Positions 2,100 through 43,957 of a stretch of 43,957 nt of DNA are shown here, piece by piece. Made by a program: the position numbers and the translations under genes. The notes under the pieces were generated by a model. The model was given only the letters and a program-made list of their open reading frames with translations. It did no database searches and had not been told where the DNA came from. Origin of the DNA: Parcubacteria group bacterium (GTDB lineage Bacteria; Patescibacteriota; Minisyncoccia; JACPHC01); the NCBI GenBank assembly GCA_016188775.1, contig JACPHC010000009.1, positions 1-43,957 on the forward strand, read 5' to 3'. Positions within the stretch are counted from its first letter, which is position 1; each line of letters opens with the position of its first letter.

Positions 2100-4241
2100 A
2101 TGTTAAAGCGTCTTGAAATTTCAGGGTTTAAATCTTTTGCCAAAAAAATCTCTTTGGAATTTCCGGGCCGGGTTTCGGCTATTGTCGGACCGAACGGTTC
2201 GGGAAAATCCAATATCGCCGACGCAATTCGCTGGGTGATGGGAGAACAAAGCTTGAAAGCGCTGCGAACGAAAGACGGCGAAGATTTGATTTTTAGCGGA
2301 TCAAACGTTGCTTCTCGGATTGGCAAAGCCAGCGCCGAACTTATTTTTGACAATATCTCTCGCTGGTTTCCCGTTGATTTGGACGAGGTTGTGATTTCAA
2401 GGAAAAGTTATCGCGGCGGGGAGAATCAATATCTTATCAATAATTCTCCGGTTCGCCTGAAAGACGTCGTGGAGATGTTGGCCAAAGTCGGAGTGGGTTC
2501 AAAAGGGTACAGTATTATCGCTCAAGGCGCGGCTGATTCATTGCTGGCCGCCTCGGACAAAGAAAGACGCGAAATGATTGAAGAAGCGCTGGGATTGAAA
2601 GAATTCCGGCTCAAAAAAAACGAAACGGAGAGAAAATTGTCTGAAACCGACAATAATCTCGCACAGGCGAGAGTTTTGATCGATGAAATATCTCCGCGGC
2701 TCAAAACTCTTTCCCGTCTTGCTTTAAAAGTTAAAGAAAGGGAAGATAAGGCCGCCCGGCTTAAAATTTTAGAAACTCAATATTTCGCCGGCGAATTAAA
2801 TAAAATAAAATCAAAAAAACAAAGTATCGAGGAAAGGAAAAATCTTTTTGAAAAAGAATTGGCAGCGGCTAAAAATTCCATTTTTAAATTACGCGAGGAT
2901 CAAAACAAGGAAGAAGAAGTGGCGCCCGCTTCTTTAAACGATTTAAATCGGCTTAATTTGGAAACGGCGAAATTAGACGAAATTGAAACAAAATTGACTC
3001 GCGATTTGGGCCGTGTTGAAGGATTAATGGAGGCTGAACTGGAAACGGAAAAATTGGAATATCAGCCCGTCACTTTAAGTTATGCCAAGGCCAGTTTGGA
3101 AAACCTCCGGCAAATTCTCAAGGATGGAAAAGTTAGCGAGGCTCTTAATTTTTTGGACGAATTAATTCGGAAATTGATTTCCGGTAAAATTGTTTCCCAA
3201 CAAAAGACGAGCGTTGAGAAAAACCTTTTTTTAAAAAAACAGGAAAAAGACATTAAGAATCAACTGGCTGAAATTTTTCAAAAAAAAGATCAAATTAAGG
3301 AAGAAATAAACAAATTAAATTTCGCTATTGCCGGCTGGCGGGAAAGATTGGCCGGAATTAAACAAGGTCTTGCCCAAGAAGAAAAAAAATTTTCCGCCCA
3401 AGAAGAAATTTTTCGATCCGTTGTTTTGGAAGAAGATAAAATCGGACTGGAAGAAAATCAGGTCCTGCGATTTGCCGAAGAGGCTGGAATTGCCAAAGAC
3501 TCTCTGGCGATTTTACCGGCCGGTCCGGTTCCTGATTTTTATCAGATTCAAAAATTAAGAAGGGAAGTGGAGTCTATTATGAATGTTGATCCGGAGGTGC
3601 TGAAAGAACACGACGCGGTTTCATTGAGGCATCAATTTTTAACGACTCAAACCGGAGATTTGGAAAAAGCTTCGGCGAGCCTCCGTGATTTAATCCGAGA
3701 ATTAGATCAAAAAATCGATCGGGATTTTCGCGCGGGTTTGGCCGAAATATCCGAAGAATTTAATCGTTATTTTCGAATGATTTTTGGCGGCGGCCGAGCC
3801 AATCTTTATTTAGTTTCAGAAAAAAAAGAAAAATATAATTTGGAAGGCGAAAATAGTCAAAACGGAGATATAGCGGAAAATGACGCTTATGCCGGATGCG
3901 CGATTTCAGCGGAAATACCGGGTAAAAAAATCAAAGGACTAAACGCTCTTTCCGGCGGGGAGAGATCGCTGACGGCCTTGAGTCTTCTTTTTGGCATTGT
4001 GGCGGTCAACTCTCCGCCGTTTTTAGTTTTTGACGAGATTGACGCGGCTTTAGACGAGTCTAATTCGCGACGTTTCGCCAATATTTTTAAGGATTTATCC
4101 CAAAAAACGCAGTTTGTGATTATCACTCATAATCGCGAGACAATGTCCGAGGCCGATGTTCTCTACGGCGTGACTTTAGCCGAAGACGGATCGTCAAAAA
4201 TTATTTCGCTCAAATTTAGCGAGAAAACAACAGTTGCGTAA
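2100..4241 (+). CDS. smc: SMC-family ATPase, short form (713 aa)
   Basis: GFKSF, Walker A GPNGSGKSN, LSGGE signature, Walker B FDEIDAALD, IITHN. Confidence 0.9.
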   Translation: MLKRLEISGFKSFAKKISLEFPGRVSAIVGPNGSGKSNIADAIRWVMGEQSLKALRTKDGEDLIFSGSNVASRIGKASAELIFDNISRWFPVDLDEVVISRKSYRGGENQYLINNSPVRLKDVVEMLAKVGVGSKGYSIIAQGAADSLLAASDKERREMIEEALGLKEFRLKKNETERKLSETDNNLAQARVLIDEISPRLKTLSRLALKVKEREDKAARLKILETQYFAGELNKIKSKKQSIEERKNLFEKELAAAKNSIFKLREDQNKEEEVAPASLNDLNRLNLETAKLDEIETKLTRDLGRVEGLMEAELETEKLEYQPVTLSYAKASLENLRQILKDGKVSEALNFLDELIRKLISGKIVSQQKTSVEKNLFLKKQEKDIKNQLAEIFQKKDQIKEEINKLNFAIAGWRERLAGIKQGLAQEEKKFSAQEEIFRSVVLEEDKIGLEENQVLRFAEEAGIAKDSLAILPAGPVPDFYQIQKLRREVESIMNVDPEVLKEHDAVSLRHQFLTTQTGDLEKASASLRDLIRELDQKIDRDFRAGLAEISEEFNRYFRMIFGGGRANLYLVSEKKEKYNLEGENSQNGDIAENDAYAGCAISAEIPGKKIKGLNALSGGERSLTALSLLFGIVAVNSPPFLVFDEIDAALDESNSRRFANIFKDLSQKTQFVIITHNRETMSEADVLYGVTLAEDGSSKIISLKFSEKTTVA

Positions 4242-4268: not shown

Positions 4269-5876
4269 ATGGAAAACGAAACGGTGATTTTTCTTAAAAA
4301 AGAAGAAGATATCAGTCTGATTTTGAAAAGATTGGACGCGGCGCGCTCTAAATTTGTTATTTTTAATTTTCCTTCAAAATCGAAAATTTTCGAAATGAAA
4401 AGTTGGTTGAGAATTCTTAAAGAAGAGGCGGAGCATCTTGGGAAAAATATCGCCATTGAAACCGACGACGAAAAGGGGATTAAGCTTTGCCAAAATCTTG
4501 GCATTGAGACGTATTTTCCGAATCAGGGCGAAAACGAAGAGTCGGAGAATATTAGGAATGAGGCCGAATTGAAAATCCAGGAAGTTAAAAATGAAAATTG
4601 GCCCGAATCTCTTCGTTTAACCAATAATGACCAGCCGAGCGGCCATCTTGAAACTTGGTTTAAAAACGGCAAGAAAAAATCTCCGGATGGCGAGATGGAA
4701 GAAAAAAAATCGTGGATTTTAAGACCTTTGGCAACTCATTTTTTGCTTTCTATTTTTATTCTTTCCTTTTCCGTTTTTGTTTTGACTATTCTTTTTATTT
4801 TGCCGAGAGTTGATGTTAATCTCAAACTTAAAGAGGAAGTCATTGAAGATGATTTGAAAATTACGGCGAAAAAAGACAGCTTAATTGTTGATCAGACGGG
4901 ATTAGTCATTCCGGCCGTGGTTTTTTCTCAAGAATCTTCGAAAAAAATTGAATTTGAAGCCACCGGCAAAAAAGAAGCCGAAGAGAAGGCGAGCGGCAGA
5001 ATCGAAGTTTTTAACGCTTACAATTCCAAGCCGCAGACTTTGGTCGCCACCACCAGGTTTGAGTCCAAAGACGGAAAAATTTTTCGAATGATTAAAGCCG
5101 CGACCATTCCGGCCGCGACAATTAAAAACGGTCAGTTAACGCCTTCAAGCGTTTTTGTCGAAGTTCGGGCCGACAAACCGGGAGAAGAATATAATATCGG
5201 CCCGAGCGACTTTACGATTCCGGGATTTGCCGGCTCTGATAAATTTAAAGGATTTTACGGAAAATCTCGTCAGGCCATGGAAGGCGGAGCTCAAGGAAAA
5301 ATAAATTTCATTACCGAGGAAGATATTAAAAAAGCTTCAGAATTTTTAAAAAATGATTTAGCCAAAGAAGCGACAACTTCTTTAAAAAGTAAAATTTCTT
5401 CGCCTCTTGATTGGATTCCCGGCGCCGATGAAATTGTTGTTTCCGAATCTAATATTTCTCAGGCGGGGAAAATCGGGCCAAAAGGTTCGGCGTTTATGAA
5501 AATAGTTTTTCAAGCGATTGTTTTTGACCAAAACGATTTAAACCGTTTGGTTGACGAAAAATTAAAAAATAAAATTAAAAATAATGAACGCTTGGTCCCC
5601 GAAATCAGCGATTTGGCGTTTTCGGGCATCGCGAAGAATTTTGAGAAAGGAATTTTGACGTTTAGCGTCAACGTCAAGGCCAAAAAAACAAAATTAATTG
5701 ATCAGGACCGGCTGATTGAAGAATTAAAAGGCCAGAGCGAGGCCGACATAAAAAATTATTTTTCTTCCAAGTCCGATATTTTAGCCGCGGCCTCGGTGAA
5801 TTACTGGCCTTTTTGGGTCAGCCACATTCCCAAGTTTTCAAAAAGCATTAATTTAATAATCGAACCAAAGTATTGA
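4269..5876 (+). CDS. Single-pass membrane protein with a probable baseplate-J-like extracytoplasmic domain
   Basis: TM segment FLLSIFILSFSVFVLTILFIL, then ASGRIEVFN...TRF...VEVRADKPGEEYNI; family recalled from motif similarity only. Confidence 0.6.
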   Translation: MENETVIFLKKEEDISLILKRLDAARSKFVIFNFPSKSKIFEMKSWLRILKEEAEHLGKNIAIETDDEKGIKLCQNLGIETYFPNQGENEESENIRNEAELKIQEVKNENWPESLRLTNNDQPSGHLETWFKNGKKKSPDGEMEEKKSWILRPLATHFLLSIFILSFSVFVLTILFILPRVDVNLKLKEEVIEDDLKITAKKDSLIVDQTGLVIPAVVFSQESSKKIEFEATGKKEAEEKASGRIEVFNAYNSKPQTLVATTRFESKDGKIFRMIKAATIPAATIKNGQLTPSSVFVEVRADKPGEEYNIGPSDFTIPGFAGSDKFKGFYGKSRQAMEGGAQGKINFITEEDIKKASEFLKNDLAKEATTSLKSKISSPLDWIPGADEIVVSESNISQAGKIGPKGSAFMKIVFQAIVFDQNDLNRLVDEKLKNKIKNNERLVPEISDLAFSGIAKNFEKGILTFSVNVKAKKTKLIDQDRLIEELKGQSEADIKNYFSSKSDILAAASVNYWPFWVSHIPKFSKSINLIIEPKY

Positions 5877-6446: not shown

Positions 6447-6612
6447 TAGACCTTTTGCAAAATAATCTTTTCTACTCCAATTCTCAAATTTCGGGTGTCA
6501 ACCCTACGGGTGATCTCCCGTAGGGAGACAAATTATTCAGAGCTTCTCAACGTATTTTGATTAAAATACGCTTCGTCGCTCTTCATAATTTTCGCTGAGA
6601 ATTTCCGGAGTA
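6447..6612. repeat. Palindromic element (RPE-1-like architecture) with nested hairpin 6496-6530; right arm merges with the rpsM 5' end
   Basis: Terminus TAGACCTTTTGCAAAATAAT; inner CGTATTTT/AAAATACG; TACTCCAATTCTCA is complementary to TGAGAATT(TCC)GGAGTA. Confidence 0.75.
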
Positions 6613-36808: not shown

Positions 36809-37216
36809 ATGAAAAAAGTTAAAAAAATCGTTTTAAAAACGGTGAAGCAAGAAAAGAAAAGATTAAGCGAGGATGAAAAATTATTGGCTGATTTGTCCCG
36901 AGAACAGATTTTGGATTTGGCCGACGCTTCGGGCAGAAAATTAGGTTTTTTATTGGCTTTGTCTCCGCTTGAAGATAAAATTAAAGAATCGATAATGGAT
37001 ATTCTTGAATTGGCTACGCCCGCCCAACTTGATAAATTTTCCGAAATGCTCGAGTTGAGTTATTTGGAATCTGGCAACAAAGAATTGGAAGAAAGTTTCA
37101 AAAAAGAAGTGGAACAAATCAAAACGACATTTGATGAAAAAGAAAAAGCTCTGGAAGAAGAAACTTTGTTCATACTCGAGCAAATAGAAAATAAAACGCT
37201 TAAAATTAATGTTTGA
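36809..37216 (+). CDS. Acidic helical hypothetical protein, 135 aa
   Basis: Co-oriented, stop overlaps the start of the next gene. Confidence 0.75.
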   Translation: MKKVKKIVLKTVKQEKKRLSEDEKLLADLSREQILDLADASGRKLGFLLALSPLEDKIKESIMDILELATPAQLDKFSEMLELSYLESGNKELEESFKKEVEQIKTTFDEKEKALEEETLFILEQIENKTLKINV

Positions 37217-39680
37217 TCACGAGGAAAAAATAAAATTTTACGTTGATCTGGCTTTAAATCAGGGCTTGCGTAAAGTGATAGAAGAAATAAGGGGATTAAA
37301 TGATCCCCATTTTTTGGATGAATTTCATGACGCTCTAAGCGATATATATTACAAAAATTTGATTGAAAAAGGCGCCAAGCGCGAGCCGGCTTTTGAGGAG
37401 GCGCTTTTTTTAATCACTTTGCCCAAAGAACCGTTTAAAGAAGGGGATATCAAATCGCGGCTCAAAGAAGTCATCTCTCCGGCTGAACAATTTTTTCAAA
37501 GCTTGACCTCAATGAAAATGCCCGAACATTTGGGCGTTTCTCTGGAAATCGCCGTGCCTCACATTTCCGATCAGATCAGTTTTTATATTGCCGGGCCAAA
37601 AGAGCACGCCGATTTTATTGAAAAACACATTTCCAGTTTTTGGCCCAAAGCCCATATTGAAAAAATTGAAGATTATAATATTTTCGCGCCCAATTCCGTT
37701 GTAATCGGTTCTCTTTTAACTTTGGAAAAAAATTATGTTTTGCCGATTCAGGCCTACCCCATTTTTGATCACGATCCTCTCAATGCTTTAACCAATTCTC
37801 TTTCTACTCTCGATCGAGTCGAAGAGGGCGCGGCTATTCAAATAGTAATGCGGCCTAAAGAAAAGGGCTGGGAAAAATTGGGAGGGATGGTCGCCAAAAA
37901 GATGCGCGAAGGCGAAAATTTTAAAAAAGCTTTTGAATCAACGCAAATTAAAGGAGCCTTAAAAGAAGCTATTTTCGGTCGAAAAACGAAAGATGAGGGG
38001 AAAGAACCTCCCAATATCTCGGGGGAAGCGGAAGAACAAATAAAAGCCATTGATGCCAAAGCGGCCAAGTCCGGCTTTTCCGTTACCATTCGCTTATTGG
38101 CTTCGGCGGACGTTAAAGAACGTTCGGAAAATATTTTGCGCCAAATGGAGGGCGCGTTTTTGCAGTTCGGCTCGCCGATTTTAAATAATTTTAAGTTTAT
38201 TCGCCAGATGGAAAAAAATCTTGAACGATTGATTTATAATTACGCCTTTCGTTTTTTTGAGCCCAAAGAAGAAATGATTTTAAATATCGAAGAATTGGCG
38301 ACGATTTTTCATCTGCCTTCCGGTCTTTTGGAAACTCCGAAAATCCGGATGGCTTTGGCCAAATCCGCGCCTCCGCCCTCGGGAATTCCGCAGGAAGGAA
38401 TTATTTTGGGCCAAAATAATTATCGCGGTTCTTCAACTTCGATTCGAATGTCCAGAGACGATCGCCGACGTCATCTTTATGTCATTGGCCAGACCGGCAC
38501 GGGCAAATCCAGTTTTTTGCAGGAAATGATCAGGCAGGACGTTGAAGCCGGCGAGGGTTTGGCCGTTTTGGATCCTCACGGCGATTTGATTGATAAAATT
38601 TTAAGTTATATTCCGGACAGCCGTCTGGACGATGTGATTTTGCTTGACCCGGGAGATTTGGAACGGCCTTTTGGAATGAATATGCTGGAATATAATCCGA
38701 ATTTTCCCGAGCAGAAAACTTTTATTATCAACGACCTTATCGCGATTTTAGACAAATTATACGATCTTAAAACAACCGGCGGGCCGATGTTTGAACAATA
38801 CACCCGAAACGCTTTAATGCTTTTAATGGACGACTACGCGAGCGGCTGGACTATAATGGAAATTCCGCGAGTGTTAGCCGACGCCGAGTTTAGAAAATCT
38901 CTTTTGGCCAAAGAAACTAATCCTATTATTTATGATTTTTGGACCAAGGAAGCGGAAAAAGCCGGCGGCGAGGCGGCTTTGGCGAATATCGTTCCCTATA
39001 TCACTTCCAAATTCAATGTTTTTATCGCCAACGACTATATGCGGCCGATTATCGGGCAATCTCAAAGTTCGGTCAATTTTCGCGAAGCAATGGATAAGAA
39101 AAAAATTGTTCTGGTGAATTTAAGCAAAGGCCGCTTGGGCGATATTAACAGTTCGCTTTTAGGCCTGGTGATTATCGGCAAAATCGTTATGGCTTCGCTT
39201 TCCCGGGTGGATATTCCGGAAGATCAGCGCCAGGATTTTTATCTCTATATTGACGAGTTTCAAAATTTTACGACCGACAGCATCGCTACCATTCTATCCG
39301 AGGCCAGAAAATACAGGCTTTCTTTAATCGGCGCTCATCAATTTATCGCTCAATTGGGAGAAAAAATCAAAGACGCGGTTTTCGGCAATGTCGGCTCAAT
39401 GGCGGCTTTTCGGGTCGGACCTTTGGACGCCGATTTTCTGGAAAAATTATTTTTACCGACTTTTAGCAAGGAAGATTTGGCTAATGTCGCTAATTTTCAG
39501 GGCTTTATTCGTTTTCTTATTAAGGGGCAAGTGACGCCGCCGTTTAATTTTGCTATTATAAAACCAAAAGATTCGGACGCGGAGCGTATGAAGAAAACTC
39601 GTGAATATGTTAGAATAAAATATGGCAGACCAAGGGCGGAGGTGGAAGAAGAGATAAAAAAGAGATATACTGTTAAATAA
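37209..39680 (+). CDS. VirD4/TraD-like (FtsK-HerA superfamily) coupling ATPase
   Basis: DRRRHLYVIGQTGTGKS (Walker A), LDPHGDL, LYIDEFQNF (Walker B), LSEARKYRL, AHQFIAQL. Confidence 0.88.
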   Translation: MFDHEEKIKFYVDLALNQGLRKVIEEIRGLNDPHFLDEFHDALSDIYYKNLIEKGAKREPAFEEALFLITLPKEPFKEGDIKSRLKEVISPAEQFFQSLTSMKMPEHLGVSLEIAVPHISDQISFYIAGPKEHADFIEKHISSFWPKAHIEKIEDYNIFAPNSVVIGSLLTLEKNYVLPIQAYPIFDHDPLNALTNSLSTLDRVEEGAAIQIVMRPKEKGWEKLGGMVAKKMREGENFKKAFESTQIKGALKEAIFGRKTKDEGKEPPNISGEAEEQIKAIDAKAAKSGFSVTIRLLASADVKERSENILRQMEGAFLQFGSPILNNFKFIRQMEKNLERLIYNYAFRFFEPKEEMILNIEELATIFHLPSGLLETPKIRMALAKSAPPPSGIPQEGIILGQNNYRGSSTSIRMSRDDRRRHLYVIGQTGTGKSSFLQEMIRQDVEAGEGLAVLDPHGDLIDKILSYIPDSRLDDVILLDPGDLERPFGMNMLEYNPNFPEQKTFIINDLIAILDKLYDLKTTGGPMFEQYTRNALMLLMDDYASGWTIMEIPRVLADAEFRKSLLAKETNPIIYDFWTKEAEKAGGEAALANIVPYITSKFNVFIANDYMRPIIGQSQSSVNFREAMDKKKIVLVNLSKGRLGDINSSLLGLVIIGKIVMASLSRVDIPEDQRQDFYLYIDEFQNFTTDSIATILSEARKYRLSLIGAHQFIAQLGEKIKDAVFGNVGSMAAFRVGPLDADFLEKLFLPTFSKEDLANVANFQGFIRFLIKGQVTPPFNFAIIKPKDSDAERMKKTREYVRIKYGRPRAEVEEEIKKRYTVK

Positions 39681-40665: not shown

Positions 40666-41829
40666 ATGTCTTATCAGGTTTTATACCGAAAATACCGGCC
40701 AAAAAAGTTTTCCGAAATTATCGGCCAAAATCATATCGTTGGTACTTTAATGAATGCCGTAAAATCGGGAAGAGTCGGCCACGCTTATCTTTTTTCCGGG
40801 CCTCGGGGCACGGGAAAAACGACCATCGCGCGGATTTTGGCTAAGACGGTAAATTGCGCCAATTTGTCTAAAATTTCCGGAGGAAATATTGATGACAAAT
40901 TGAGCGTCCGCCGAAGCGAAGCAAAGGCGGACAGCTATTTTTTCGAGCCTTGCAATTCCTGCGAACTCTGCCTTGATTTTAACGAAAGTAGAAATCTTGA
41001 TTTGATTGAAATAGACGCGGCTTCTTCCAGGGGCATTGACGAGGTTCGGGAATTGCGGGAAGGAGCTCGTTTCAGTCCCTCGCGCTCTAAATTCAAAGTT
41101 TACATTATTGACGAAGTTCATATGATGACTAAAGAGGCTTTTAACGCTCTTTTGAAAACATTGGAAGAGCCGCCGGCTCACGCGATTTTTATTCTGGCCA
41201 CGACTGAACCGGATCGCTTGCCTTTGACAATCCGATCTCGCTGTCAGCATTTTCATTTTTGGCGGCCGAGCGTCAATCAAATCATTGAACGTTTAAAATT
41301 TATCAGCCGGGAAGAAAAAATTAAAGCCGAAGAATCGGCTCTTCGTTTGATAGCCAAATCGGCTTCGGGGTCAATGAGAGACGCCGAAAGCCTTTTTGGC
41401 CAGGTGATTACGCTCGAGGACAAAGAGATTAAAAAAGAAGAAGTGGAAGAAATTTTAGGCGTCGCTCCTTCGGAGTTTGTAAAAAATTTTCTCAGGCATG
41501 TTTCTGAAAAAGACGCGCGTTCGGCTATTCATTTGGTCGGCCGTATTTACGACGAAGGCTATGATTTGGGCGAGTTTAATAAAAATTTAATTACTGATTT
41601 AAGACACCTATTGCTTTTAAAAATTGATCCGAAATTTAAAACCGTTTTAAAAGAGGATTTAACTTCTGACGAAATTGAAGAGCTTGAAAAAATGGTTGTT
41701 GTTTTGGACGCGAAAAATTTGGAAAACGGCTTAAAAATTTTTCTTGAAGCTAATCAGAATATAAAAAAATTTGTTTATCCCCAGCTGGCCCTAGAAATGG
41801 CGGTTGTGGAATATTGCGGGATCGTCTAA
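40666..41829 (+). CDS. dnaX: DNA polymerase III subunit gamma/tau (short)
   Basis: LYRKYRP, GPRGTGKTT, EIDAAS, IIDEVHM, NALLKTLEEPP, SRC. Confidence 0.97.
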   Translation: MSYQVLYRKYRPKKFSEIIGQNHIVGTLMNAVKSGRVGHAYLFSGPRGTGKTTIARILAKTVNCANLSKISGGNIDDKLSVRRSEAKADSYFFEPCNSCELCLDFNESRNLDLIEIDAASSRGIDEVRELREGARFSPSRSKFKVYIIDEVHMMTKEAFNALLKTLEEPPAHAIFILATTEPDRLPLTIRSRCQHFHFWRPSVNQIIERLKFISREEKIKAEESALRLIAKSASGSMRDAESLFGQVITLEDKEIKKEEVEEILGVAPSEFVKNFLRHVSEKDARSAIHLVGRIYDEGYDLGEFNKNLITDLRHLLLLKIDPKFKTVLKEDLTSDEIEELEKMVVVLDAKNLENGLKIFLEANQNIKKFVYPQLALEMAVVEYCGIV

Positions 41830-43507
41830 TGGTAGGACATCGCCCTTTGAAGGCGAGTATCTTGGTTCGAGTCCAAGTCCCGCAGCTTCGGTCAGGAGTT
41901 AAAATGAATTTGGCGGGGTGAAGTAGGACATCGCCCTTCTTGCCCCGCCGTAGAGGCGGGGTGAAAAGGCGAGTATCTGGCTTGCCCCGAAGAAAGCGGG
42001 GGTTCGAGTCCAAGTCCCGCAGCCACATTGTATTAATCGGAAAGGGTGCCTCGCGGCTTCGCCACTCGGCATTGAATTCAGCGAGAATTTGCCAGTCATT
42101 TTTGAACGAAACCGAAACCGCTCGCTCCGCGAGCTGTGGGTTCGAGCCGACTTTTTCAAGATAATTTTTCTTTTCAGAAAAATTATCTCCCAAAGCGACA
42201 GAATTAGCTTGGTGAGCGGCTAAAATGAGATTCTTTGTCCGTTCGAGCCAGCGATTGCCCTTTCGCTCAAAATCTTTCAATTTCTGCTCAATATCAATTT
42301 TGCGTGCGAGGATTTTGTTTTTCTTGGCGGTATATTCCTCGCCAGTAATGGTCTTTTCCAAATGAGCGTCTAAAAGCGTGTCCAACTTCTCCTCGCACGC
42401 CTTTACCTCGTTTTTGAGATTTTGAGCGAACAGGGCATCAGATTGGGCGGTGCTCGCTTCATCTGTTTTTAATTGCGCGAGCATCGGTTCCGCCCAATCT
42501 TTCGGTAAAGAAACTTTTTGAAGTATGTCGGAAATCTGCGAGGCGAGAACTTCTTCGCGGATATAGGGTTGCGAACAAACATCTTTCTTTTTCGTACAGC
42601 GATAGTAGACATAGTGCCGACCACTCTTTTTAGTTTTGTCTTCGGCGGTAATGGCGCAACCACACTCTCCGCATTTCAATAATCCGCGAAAAATATATGT
42701 CTTCTCGCCTCGCTTCTTGGGTCGGGACTTTTCCGACATGACTTCTTGGACTTTATCAAAAAGTTTCTTTGTTATCGCTGGCTCATGCTTGCCTTCGTAT
42801 AGCTCGCCGTTGAACTTAAACGCGCCGTAGTAAAACGGATTACGAAGTATCATTTGGATATTGGAAACAGTCAGCCGTTTTCCGTTCCGGCTCACCAAGC
42901 CAATTTCGGTAATTTCATTTCGTAAATCTTTCAGAGAATAATTTTTGGTTGCGTACAATTCAAAAAGTTTTTGGACGAGGCGATAGCGTTCAGGGTCTTT
43001 CACCATTTTGTGATTCACTTTGTCGTTCAAGTATCCGGTAGGGGCAACGCCCGGATATTCGCCTCGTCTTACTTTTTGACGCAACCCTCGTTTTACATTC
43101 TCTGAAAGATTATCAATATAGTATTTGGATTGCCCAAAAGCGATATTCAACATGAATTTTCCTTGCGGCGTGGCATCAAACCAAAAAGTGGGAAATTTTA
43201 GCTCACGAATTTTGGTTGTATCAATCAAATAAATTACTCTGCCGCCATCGACACTGTTTCTAGCCAATCTATCAGGATGCCACGCCAAAATTCCTTGGGC
43301 AAATCCTTTCTCTACGAGCGAGAGCATTTGGTTAAAGATAGGTCGCCCCGGCTCTTTGGCGGTCTGACTTTCTATGAACTCCTGCACTATCTCCAAATGC
43401 TCTCGCTCACCGAACTCACGCAACTCGGTTATTTGCGCCTCAATACTCAAAATTTGCCTATCCGGTTCATCGGTTGATTTTCTTGCGTAGAGAAAGAATT
43501 TGCTCAT
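41750..43507 (-). CDS. Large serine recombinase/integrase; C-terminal ~90 aa is readthrough antisense to the tRNA copies and the end of dnaX
   Basis: YARKS catalytic Ser, DRLARN, recombinase domain, zinc ribbon CGECG...YYRC...C, coiled coil; WLRDLDSNP is the antisense of the tRNA T arm. Confidence 0.93.
41815..41885 (+). tRNA. tRNA-Gln(TTG), no encoded CCA, overlapping the last 15 nt of dnaX
   Basis: Acceptor TGCGGGA/TCCCGCA, D arm GTC/GAC, anticodon arm TCGCC-CTTTGAA-GGCGA, T arm CTTGG-TTCGAGT-CCAAG, discriminator G. Confidence 0.93.
41913..42025 (+). pseudogene. Second, interrupted copy of tRNA-Gln ending in CCA
   Basis: GTAGGACATCGCCCTT / GGCGAGTATCT / GGTTCGAGTCCAAGTCCCGCAGCCA blocks separated by two CTTGCCCCG...CGGGG hairpins. 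Confidence 0.8.
42020..42136. repeat. Left arm of perfect 117-bp inverted repeat (att-like junction at the tRNA 3' end)
   Basis: Base-by-base reverse complement of 43615-43731. Confidence 0.95.
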
Positions 43508-43524
43508 ATCGCTTTTGGGCTAAA

Positions 43525-43782
43525 AATTACTGTCGCTTTGGTTTCCGCCAAAGGCGGAAAAGAAAAAGTCGGCTCACAAATTTCATTTGTATTCCGCTTT
43601 GCGGAATGAACCCCCAGCTCGCGGAGCGAGCGGTTTCGGTTTCGTTCAAAAATGACTGGCAAATTCTCGCTGAATTCAATGCCGAGTGGCGAAGCCGCGA
43701 GGCACCCTTTCCGATTAATACAATGTGGCTGTGTCTCCTGAACAAAATCCGAACTTTTTACCAAACGAACCCCGACGAATGA
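43525..43782 (+). pseudogene. Inverted duplicate of the recombinase 3' end with alternative C-terminus [19 protein letters not shown]
   Basis: 43615-43731 identical to the left arm; interrupted homology blocks CTGTCGCTTTGG and GAAAAAGTCGGCTC extend to ~43525. Confidence 0.85.
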
Positions 43783-43783
43783 A

Positions 43784-43935
43784 GCCGCCCCGCCGCCGCT
43801 CGCTGACACTCGCCGTACCACAGAAAAATACTCTTTGCTCTTTTCATTTTGCGCGCGCCGGATTTCTTTTTCTCCTAATGAAAAGAGTATTTTTCTGTGG
43901 TGCTTTGCTTTGACAAGCAAGGCGGCGGGGCTGGC
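43784..43935. other. ~150-nt structured element immediately after the alternative recombinase stop
   Basis: GCCCCGCCGCC (43787-43797)/GGCGGCGGGGC (43921-43931); ACCACAGAAAAATACTCTT (43817-43835)/AAGAGTATTTTTCTGTGGT (43883-43901). Confidence 0.8.
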
Positions 43936-43957
43936 CTCTATTTTTTGAAAGGGAATG

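Follow-up and report, generated by a model that had tools for sequence, protein, structure and literature searches.

A large serine recombinase element with a second, inverted attachment site at a tRNA-Gln gene of a Parcubacteria group bacterium

Introduction

Near one end of a contig from a Parcubacteria group bacterium, the gene of a large serine recombinase (int) is enclosed by an inverted copy of its own 3' end, which raises the question of what this second copy is and what it could be used for. The contig (JACPHC010000009.1, C2 in the following) is one of ten in a 766,832-bp genome (G000), and all of its 43,957 nucleotides (nt) form the window studied here. The window ends inside a small integrative element that encodes the recombinase and is inserted at the 3' end of a tRNA-Gln copy. 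Three attachment-type sites belong to the element: an attL (42001–42143), an inverted and intact attP (43608–43782) and an attR at the start of another contig of the same genome, C8. The best overall explanation, to which we assign a probability of roughly 0.7, is a three-site element whose free form is a circle with two inverted attP-bearing repeats and which integrated via the int-proximal copy.

Structure of the locus

The tRNA side, the recombinase gene and the first inverted repeat (repeat 1) comprise the following features.

41815–41886, plus strand: intact tRNA-Gln (UUG), called by ARAGORN and by Rfam (tRNA, 63.7 bits).
41905–42025, plus strand: degenerate second tRNA-Gln copy with two GC-rich hairpin insertions, seen from a 23-nt direct repeat (41864–41886 / 42001–42023) plus repeats D4 and D6.
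42020–42025: shared core CAGCCA, from site comparison.
42020–42143: proximal arm of repeat 1, int 3' end (about the last 41 codons) and core, from the repeat search and the open reading frame (ORF).
41750–43507, minus strand: large serine recombinase gene, 585 amino acids (aa), with Pfam matches to Resolvase (8.3e-22), Recombinase (6.7e-18) and Zn_ribbon_recom (4.2e-12).
43508–43607: spacer from int to the distal arm, with degenerate inverted pieces of the int 3' end (43525–43541, 43562–43575) and a 32-nt hairpin-like insertion (43576–43607), from repeat comparison.
43608–43731: distal arm of repeat 1, inverted copy of the int 3' end and core, from the repeat search; its inner junction is bridged by contigs from public sequencing runs.

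All three domains of a large serine recombinase (N-terminal resolvase, recombinase and zinc ribbon) were matched by Pfam in Int. Int proper comprises residues 1–496 (43507–42020); its homologues have lengths of 485–535 aa. The other 89 codons of the minus-strand ORF are antisense read-through of the pseudo-tRNA, tRNA-Gln and the end of dnaX, and the frame reads ...[10 protein letters not shown] before it enters this stretch. With 496 residues and integrase-type domains the protein is unlike the invertases of the Hin/Gin type, which have about 190 aa and a C-terminal helix-turn-helix.

Repeat 1 consists of two arms of 124 nt (42020–42143 and 43608–43731) with one mismatch (99% complementary) and 1464 nt between them. 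A search of all 766,832 bp returned these two arms as the only copies. The initial annotation had described a perfect inverted repeat of 117 bp, which falls within the arms, and had assigned the left arm to the coding 3' end of the recombinase, in agreement with the coordinates of the ORF. Its statement that identity stops exactly at CAGCCA also holds, as 42020–42025 is both the start of the identity and the end of the tRNA copy. The interrupted homology that it traced back to about 43525 was found in two pieces: 43562–43575 pairs with 42144–42157 and 43525–43541 with 42190–42205. This inward homology is degenerate and broken by the 32-nt hairpin insertion of the spacer. A relative, L136, has the same spacer including the insertion. 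The right arm is contained in a plus-strand ORF (43474–43782) ending in ...[19 protein letters not shown], and 226 nt separate the arm from the contig end.

So short a distance, together with the many related contigs that end near their arms, could point to a palindromic or chimeric join made during assembly. The contig ends of this assembly overlap by 141 nt; the assembler k was therefore 141, which exceeds the arm length of 124 nt, and the orientation of C2 thus rests on real words spanning the arm. Public groundwater sequencing runs provided a second line of evidence. Four out of 20 runs (X1–X4) were compared as contigs assembled at k = 31, which confirm single junctions and cannot link across a 124-nt arm. 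These independent contigs bridge the junction between spacer and right arm (43150–43731 and 43538–43648) as well as that between tRNA and left arm (41857–42116). Parts of the window lack contig cover in run X1, and we drew no inference from them. The repeat is also present in a closed genome (L077, CP174360.1) and in contigs of 600–775 kb (L089, L112, L116) from other assemblers. Degenerate homology past the arm is not expected of a chimera, and C2 stops 141 nt after the sole mismatch of a second repeat described below, as in a break by repeat collapse. Repeat 1 is neither a chance match nor a chimera, and the probability of an assembly artefact is negligible.

Attachment sites and core

The outer half of the right-hand site adjoins the distal arm.

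43732–43782, plus strand: attP-type (P) half-site encoding the native tail [16 protein letters not shown] and then a stop codon; its GTTCG lies 23 nt from the boundary of identity (ORF; 53-locus consensus).

The attL is composed of the T-arm and acceptor end of the tRNA, the core and the int 3' end. Its attB-type (B) half corresponds to the T-arm and acceptor end of the tRNA copy (42001–42025), where GTTCG begins 18 nt before the identity boundary. The inverted attP comprises the copy of the int 3' end, the core and a tRNA-mimicking outer half that encodes the native tail, with a terminator-like hairpin next to it. In this distal outer half an A-run and a second related motif precede the T-loop-like GTTCG. 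The attR combines the same outer half with the core and host DNA.

The outer motif is offset by 23 nt on the distal side and by 18 nt on the tRNA side, or by 21/16 or 22/17 in other loci. The difference is +5 in all of the 76 loci typed as B on the tRNA side and P on the distal side, and a half-site consensus from 53 dereplicated loci shows the same 5 bp. For the Listeria integrase, Rutherford 2013 (PMC3783163) places the motif of the zinc-ribbon domain 5 bp nearer to the crossover in attB than in attP. Since the offset found here matches this attP/attB rule, the left site is an attL and the right site a complete, inverted attP. The proposal of an intact attP-like site in inverted orientation made in the initial annotation is supported by the 76 typed loci. 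The 5-bp test covers the outer halves only. Three loci (L080, L083, L086) were typed P on the tRNA side through a match to the second motif, and ARAGORN finds a tRNA there; the distal typing of L154 is unreliable, its arm being cut by the contig end. In the identity-boundary data the rows of L069, L082, L089, L105, L110, L121 and L122 refer to the second repeat, which had been picked by length, and not to repeat 1.

Site identity starts 5–7 nt before the tRNA end in every typical locus. The attR on C8 shares only the first four nucleotides of the core (CAGC), and the crossover must therefore fall within them. Four nucleotides are also the minimal core common to all three sites in relatives with both repeats. 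Large serine integrases recombine at a central dinucleotide, and their attP and attB require little further identity. An int-side half of the attB type, corresponding to a freely reversible system, was considered as well and rejected: the 53-locus consensus contains no T-loop-like motif on that side at either spacing.

ARAGORN made no call for the degenerate tRNA-Gln copy (41905–42025). In an Rfam scan of 41500–43957 tRNA alone exceeded the gathering score, and the hairpin region had no family. The small GC-rich hairpins in the tRNA-Gln copy (41905–42026) resemble those in the spacer upstream of int (43540–43560, 43576–43607), and both sets may be members of one family of miniature palindromic repeats in this genome. 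The invariant GSN motif of the recombinase is encoded, right where the arm has its inner edge, by a sequence (42139–42149) that resembles a T-loop on the tRNA strand. The distance from the T-loop at 42001 to this sequence is 138 nt, and that from the T-loop at 41864 to the one at 42001 is 137 nt. This spacing could be due to chance or could be a trace of an earlier capture of a tRNA into the int 3' end.

Native C-terminal tail and terminator-like hairpin

The P half is followed by a further element that reaches to the contig end.

43783–43957, plus strand: long hairpin and then a U-run (terminator-like), directly past the native stop codon (fold −73.5 kcal/mol, z −5.5, 0 of 200 shuffles as good).

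The crossover of integration has cut the native end off the int gene. Read in the int frame, the distal tails start with W and continue as ..L.E[IV]RTFF.ENP..., with a stop codon in 82 of 98 distal sites. Nearly all of the stopped tails (77 of 82) measure 13–20 aa, and the one at this locus has 16 aa; the tails of int on the tRNA side range from 1 to 132 aa. These counts bear out the earlier idea of the [13 protein letters not shown] tail as the native, conserved end, and the fixed position of the stop speaks for a translated end.

Full-length proteins with a native tail (P0006, P0022, P0038, P0039 and P0044) were not taken to prove a native int gene, since in such assemblies the path through the graph may lead from the int arm into the distal tail. 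The structure model of P0006 (mean pLDDT, the predicted local distance difference test, 72.9) shows long helices after the zinc ribbon (residues 331–449), in line with the long helical insert that the zinc-ribbon domain of large serine recombinases contains, values below 50 for residues 449–491 and a tail helix (485–503, pLDDT ~65). It gives no useful information on the role of the tail.

Could the distal copy be a gene of its own? It would then encode a protein of about 60 aa, made up of the last 45 Int residues and the native tail, that might have a regulatory role or serve as directionality factor. A frame of 62 codons runs from an ATG at 43597 to the native stop, the relative L010 has an ATG at the arm edge, and the frame is divergent from int with the terminator behind it. 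However, in a count of starts outside the arm, ATG, GTG and TTG are all missing from the interval that follows the upstream in-frame stop in 19 of 47 loci, and an ATG is present there in only five. A Pfam search with the predicted protein gave no match. Because there is no conserved start codon, a separate small protein appears unlikely.

In the public runs, the summed contig depth at 43714–43900, which covers the native tail and the hairpin, exceeds that of dnaX about 30-fold. This stretch is therefore shared, at an identity of at least 93%, by many related elements of the same communities.

Second inverted repeat, attR and cargo

The distal end of the window belongs to a second inverted repeat (repeat 2).

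43728–43957: visible part of one arm of repeat 2, the reverse complement of C8:1–230 with one mismatch at 43816.

Repeat 1 is the part common to attL and the inverted attP, and repeat 2 the part common to the inverted attP and attR. The second repeat, the cargo and attR had escaped the initial annotation, and the site which it dealt with is one of three. On C8, the sequence past CAGC contains two host genes, a histidine-phosphatase-like ORF and a TypA-like ORF. As the copy of the outer half and the core continue there into host genes, we assign this junction to attR. In run X1 it appears as a loose end at 43728. Because C2 ends 141 nt past the only mismatch, both C2 and C8 stop where the arms of repeat 2 become indistinguishable; the cargo between the two contigs is missing from the assembly of this bin.

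The full layout is seen in relatives: tRNA, core, int arm, int, spacer, inverted int arm, core, outer half with hairpin, cargo, inverted outer half, core and host DNA. It is present in 12 of 31 loci with long flanks, and two more are cut by the locus edge. Both repeats are recorded in 24 rows, with cargo segments of 0.6–4.9 kb. The boundaries of a tRNA-site island, i.e. a tRNA 3' end on one side and on the other a junction that repeats the core and leads into host genes, were found for C2/C8, G024, L112, L148 and others. In G024, which has repeat 2 and attR, the cargo, with NUDIX and HD proteins, is followed by the next host tRNA. L148, which is 92.6% identical to the present element, has a repeat 2 of 298 nt and a 3.8-kb cargo with N6_N4 methylase, DUF4145 and T5orf172 proteins. 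Further cargos include a C5 methylase, two GmrSD-type enzymes (one with Mrr_N and Schlafen/AlbA_2) and a multicopper oxidase. The cargo of relatives typically spans 1–4 kb and often contains defence genes, and the elements measure 3–6 kb with one to four unrelated cargo genes. The cargo ORFs scanned were methylases, restriction enzymes, NUDIX/HD proteins, an oxidase or had no family, and none was a virion or replication gene. For an empty site we searched 61 relatives with the first protein of C8; the best match was 37% identical, too distant for a comparison of gene order.

The cargo ends next to the spare attP in G024 (L034:5217–5293 and 6465–6493) carry perfect inverted copies, 20–29 nt long, of pieces of the int module. 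These patchwork copies derive from 3617–3643, 4820–4839, 4858–4886 and 4994–5021.

Contigs in bins of the Candidate Phyla Radiation (CPR) often end 0–250 nt outside a distal arm or inside an arm, and several contig ends of G000 overlap by exactly 141 nt. It seems that the nested inverted repeats systematically interrupt the assembly of CPR bins.

Distribution of the element and co-evolution of the arms

Of 8000 scored candidates, at least 7948 were related homologues of Int in CPR/Patescibacteria. Homologues occur in 35 of 61 related genomes, and at least about 590 related stretches were confirmed in each of two collections, one of genomes and one of metagenomes. In the ten best loci from relatives (L003–L012) the recombinase is convergent with a tRNA gene (Gln, Ala, Ile, Ser, Tyr, Pro, Leu and others). 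Their repeats span 66–158 nt with an arm identity of 95–100%, and the proteins are only 45–92% identical. We analyzed 160 further loci, 80 from genome contigs and 80 from metagenome contigs. Repeat 1 is present in 132 of these, with recombinases 49–95% identical to the one described here. Across loci its arms measure 40–165 nt, mostly more than 70 nt, and are mostly 95–100% identical.

A comparison of 64 related pairs of loci yielded 914 concerted differences against 245 confined to one arm. The pairs overlap in their ancestry and do not count as independent, and most of the 245 come from a few decayed loci. Judged from these alignments, the two arms co-evolve and are kept near-identical by concerted change. 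The same genome holds further copies in different states. A second intact element lies at a tRNA-Val (C10:137–1883), with a repeat of 114 nt at 100% identity; its contig starts 136 nt outside the distal arm. At a tRNA-Ser (C7:44027–48318) we found a decayed element with a broken int gene and a repeat 2 at 85.7%, in which repeat 1 is gone. A recombinase of 30% identity is encoded at C4:12415–13857.

As a fallback, the initial annotation had considered the right arm to be the remnant of a second element in opposite orientation. Such a relic would be decaying and without a present role. The degenerate homology past the 124 nt, broken by the 32-nt insertion, would fit such a relic, and C7 demonstrates that the genome does hold a decayed element. 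That truly decayed element has lost repeat 1, however, while the same layout persists in 132 of 160 loci despite the divergence of their recombinases. The arms in these loci are mostly 95–100% identical and change together, and the boundary is always at the tRNA end. With the arms co-evolving, the relic explanation is close to refuted and very improbable. The design with a spare attP is common to a very large CPR family and not peculiar to this locus.

Proposed mechanism

Based on the site comparison we propose the following cycle for the three-site element. The free form would be a circle in which two inverted copies of one long attP-bearing repeat separate the int module from the cargo module. 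Integration would use the copy that int reads into and split it into attL and attR, leaving the other copy whole. In this step the recombinase would read the tRNA T-loop as its zinc-ribbon-domain motif, and int would exchange its native tail and terminator for tRNA-antisense sequence. The integrated form, with int reading into the tRNA, would be a stable resting state, in which the spare inverted attP would be kept active and identical to its partners.

Junctions in four relatives bear on the activity of the spare site. The fragment arm of L186 and that of L136 do not adjoin an attP-type half but a further tRNA, which differs from the first and has the same isotype. The int module is located between two inverted tRNAs (Ser GCT/TGA and Gln/Gln, respectively), without cargo beside it. 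The arrangement looks as if an internal attP had recombined with another tRNA and the rest had been deleted. These tRNA junctions suggest that the distal attP is active. In L068 and L183 the end of int continues into a different half of the attP type that has a native-type tail of its own, as a second element inserted into attL in tandem would give.

The initial annotation had proposed a self-inverting switch. In a more detailed version of it the 1.7-kb int module would flip between the arms, either through Int (attL with inverted attP) or through RecA (124-nt arms). The flipped int would gain the native tail and terminator and point away from the tRNA, and this state would be short-lived, as active Int excises or flips back. 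Inverted sites do flank the segment, as that proposal states. The other part, both orientations in natural populations, was not borne out: among the loci readable on both sides, int points away from the tRNA in none and is in the resting orientation in 76. The public runs, compared as k = 31 contigs, do not resolve rare subpopulations.

Several features would nevertheless suit flipping. The arms are longer than the short attachment sites of model integrases described in PMC3783163 and seem to be kept near-identical by concerted change. In integrated copies the conserved native tail is attached only to a fragment without a conserved start codon, and the terminator hairpin follows exactly behind the native stop. 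Recombination of attP with attL between elements seems to occur, judging from the tandem junctions of L068 and L183, and the distal attP appears to be active with tRNAs. Five contigs (L064, L066, L073, L128, L162) show the inverted order with the tRNA upstream of int. All five, however, stop in or at the second arm, i.e. the int 3' arm, where a de Bruijn walk may branch either way. C2 was assembled unbroken through both arms at k = 141, so the resting order dominates this population. Since excision alone would rebuild the native int from attR, flipping is not required to explain the tail. According to PMC3783163, canonical serine integrases do not recombine attL with attP, which argues against flipping driven by Int. 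Taken together, we consider the switch less likely than not.

A tentative use of the spare attP would be that of a partner for a rare inversion of the int module by RecA or Int that rebuilds the native int. We favour this use, with which the length of the arms, their concerted change and the lack of a stable inverted state agree, although excision alone would rebuild the native int as well. In its fullest form, which we put forward with reservation, the element might work as a resettable latch. Integration would remove the native tail and terminator of int and park the silenced gene against the tRNA; by means of the long and perfectly matched arms RecA, or traces of Int, would occasionally flip the 1.7-kb module, and the restored int would then excise the element.

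Several observations weigh against the three-site element with its circular form and its spare site. No circular form was seen among the loci, and L068 and L183 carry two different P halves, hence do not represent the predicted circle. The second repeat was not found within about 3.7 kb in 17 of the 31 loci with long flanks, where a longer cargo or a missing attR may be the reason. In the 53-locus consensus no conserved zinc-ribbon-domain motif appears in the inner half (int 3' end), so that the site is less symmetric than a model attP. Conservation of the tail could be partly at the DNA level: the R and T codons make up the T-loop mimic (antisense), FF the A-run and ENP the second motif. The orientation of the modules is nearly fixed, with int at 76 to 0 and the cargo genes opposite to int in 11 of 12 elements, and the cited behaviour of attL and attP in model integrases points in the same direction. 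Finally, the viral collection contains only 14 contigs with a relative, just two of which are near full length, both at contig ends. The probability given in the Introduction takes these points into account.

Neighbouring features

The host gene next to the tRNA is dnaX, whose last codons overlap the start of tRNA-Gln.

40666–41829, plus strand: dnaX (DNA polymerase III gamma/tau), an ORF with Pfam matches to DNA_pol3_delta2 (5e-42), DNAX_ATPase_lid and DNA_pol3_gamma3.

Just upstream of the dnaX region, an ORF of 823 aa with a P-loop motif is located at 37209–39680.

Significance and comparison with known systems

Serine integrases are leading tools of genome engineering, and their one-way behaviour together with the separate reversal factor are central and still actively studied questions. 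The present family is unusual in that a tRNA T-loop, a universal feature of an RNA gene, is apparently read as a DNA motif, the attachment site is part of the recombinase's own coding end, a second, inverted site is kept and there is no obvious reversal factor. With this family, simple plasmid assays can test how directionality could follow from the state of the recombinase gene instead of from a second protein. If true, the latch would let a serine integrase control its direction without a directionality factor, and would do so in thousands of CPR elements that carry defence genes from one tRNA site to another. In CPR bacteria, whose mobile elements are little described, the family is also recognized as the main vehicle of small islets of defence genes (restriction, methylase, GmrSD), and its two nested inverted repeats explain recurrent contig breaks in CPR genome bins.

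The closest known proteins are the phage-type large serine integrases (Listeria A118/LI, phiC31, Bxb1). They share the three-domain protein, a short common core and asymmetric attP- and attB-type half-sites with an outer motif 5 bp nearer to the centre in the host site. Here, however, integration is aimed at the 3' ends of many different tRNAs, whose T-loop serves as outer motif, attP lies within the last codons of the recombinase itself, and the integrated element retains a second, inverted attP. Relatives were found in only 14 viral contigs. A gene for a directionality factor was not evident in the 3–6 kb elements, in which no systematic search for candidates was made.

The Hin/Gin/Cin switches are alike in that a serine recombinase gene is bracketed by inverted repeats. 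Inverted repeats bracket hin, and in the tail-fibre segment of Gin/Mu inversion swaps the C-terminal end of a protein. The enzymes are small invertases that act on 26-bp sites with the help of an enhancer, and the two orientations of the segment occur side by side. Here the protein is of the integrase type with about 500 aa, the arms reach 165 nt and one orientation is seen.

In two systems with tyrosine recombinases integration changes a coding end. The SSV1-type archaeal integrases enter tRNA genes via a site inside the integrase ORF, which alters the int gene by splitting it in two. In the present family just the last 13–20 codons are exchanged and a spare copy of them is kept. In the integration-dependent immunity of mycobacteriophages, attP lies in a coding region and integration, by a tyrosine integrase, removes the C-terminal tail of the repressor. 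The loss of a tail through an attP in a coding region is the same as here, but the gene is a repressor gene and there is no inverted spare site.

The proposed circle resembles the yeast 2-micron plasmid (FLP/FRT), where two long inverted repeats with recombination sites separate two unique segments; no circle was observed here. That plasmid is eukaryotic, uses a tyrosine recombinase and is replicative rather than integrative. Tn4451 and Tn5397 (TnpX, TndX) are small cargo elements moved via a circle by a large serine recombinase, whose expression depends on the state of the element. They share the small cargo and the type of recombinase, but do not target tRNAs, lack an inverted attP and do not exchange a C-terminus.

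Tycheposons and other tRNA-site islands are likewise small cargo or defence islands at tRNA genes. Tycheposons mostly use tyrosine recombinases and have direct repeats at their ends; in the tycheposon preprint, a minority (27 of 937) use a large serine recombinase, and the word 'inverted' occurs in the reference list only. Neither serine-recombinase elements at tRNAs of CPR bacteria nor an inverted spare attP were found described in the literature covered, which left subscription-only papers outside. What is new here is a serine-integrase integrative element with an inverted spare attP; it is not a new kind of system.

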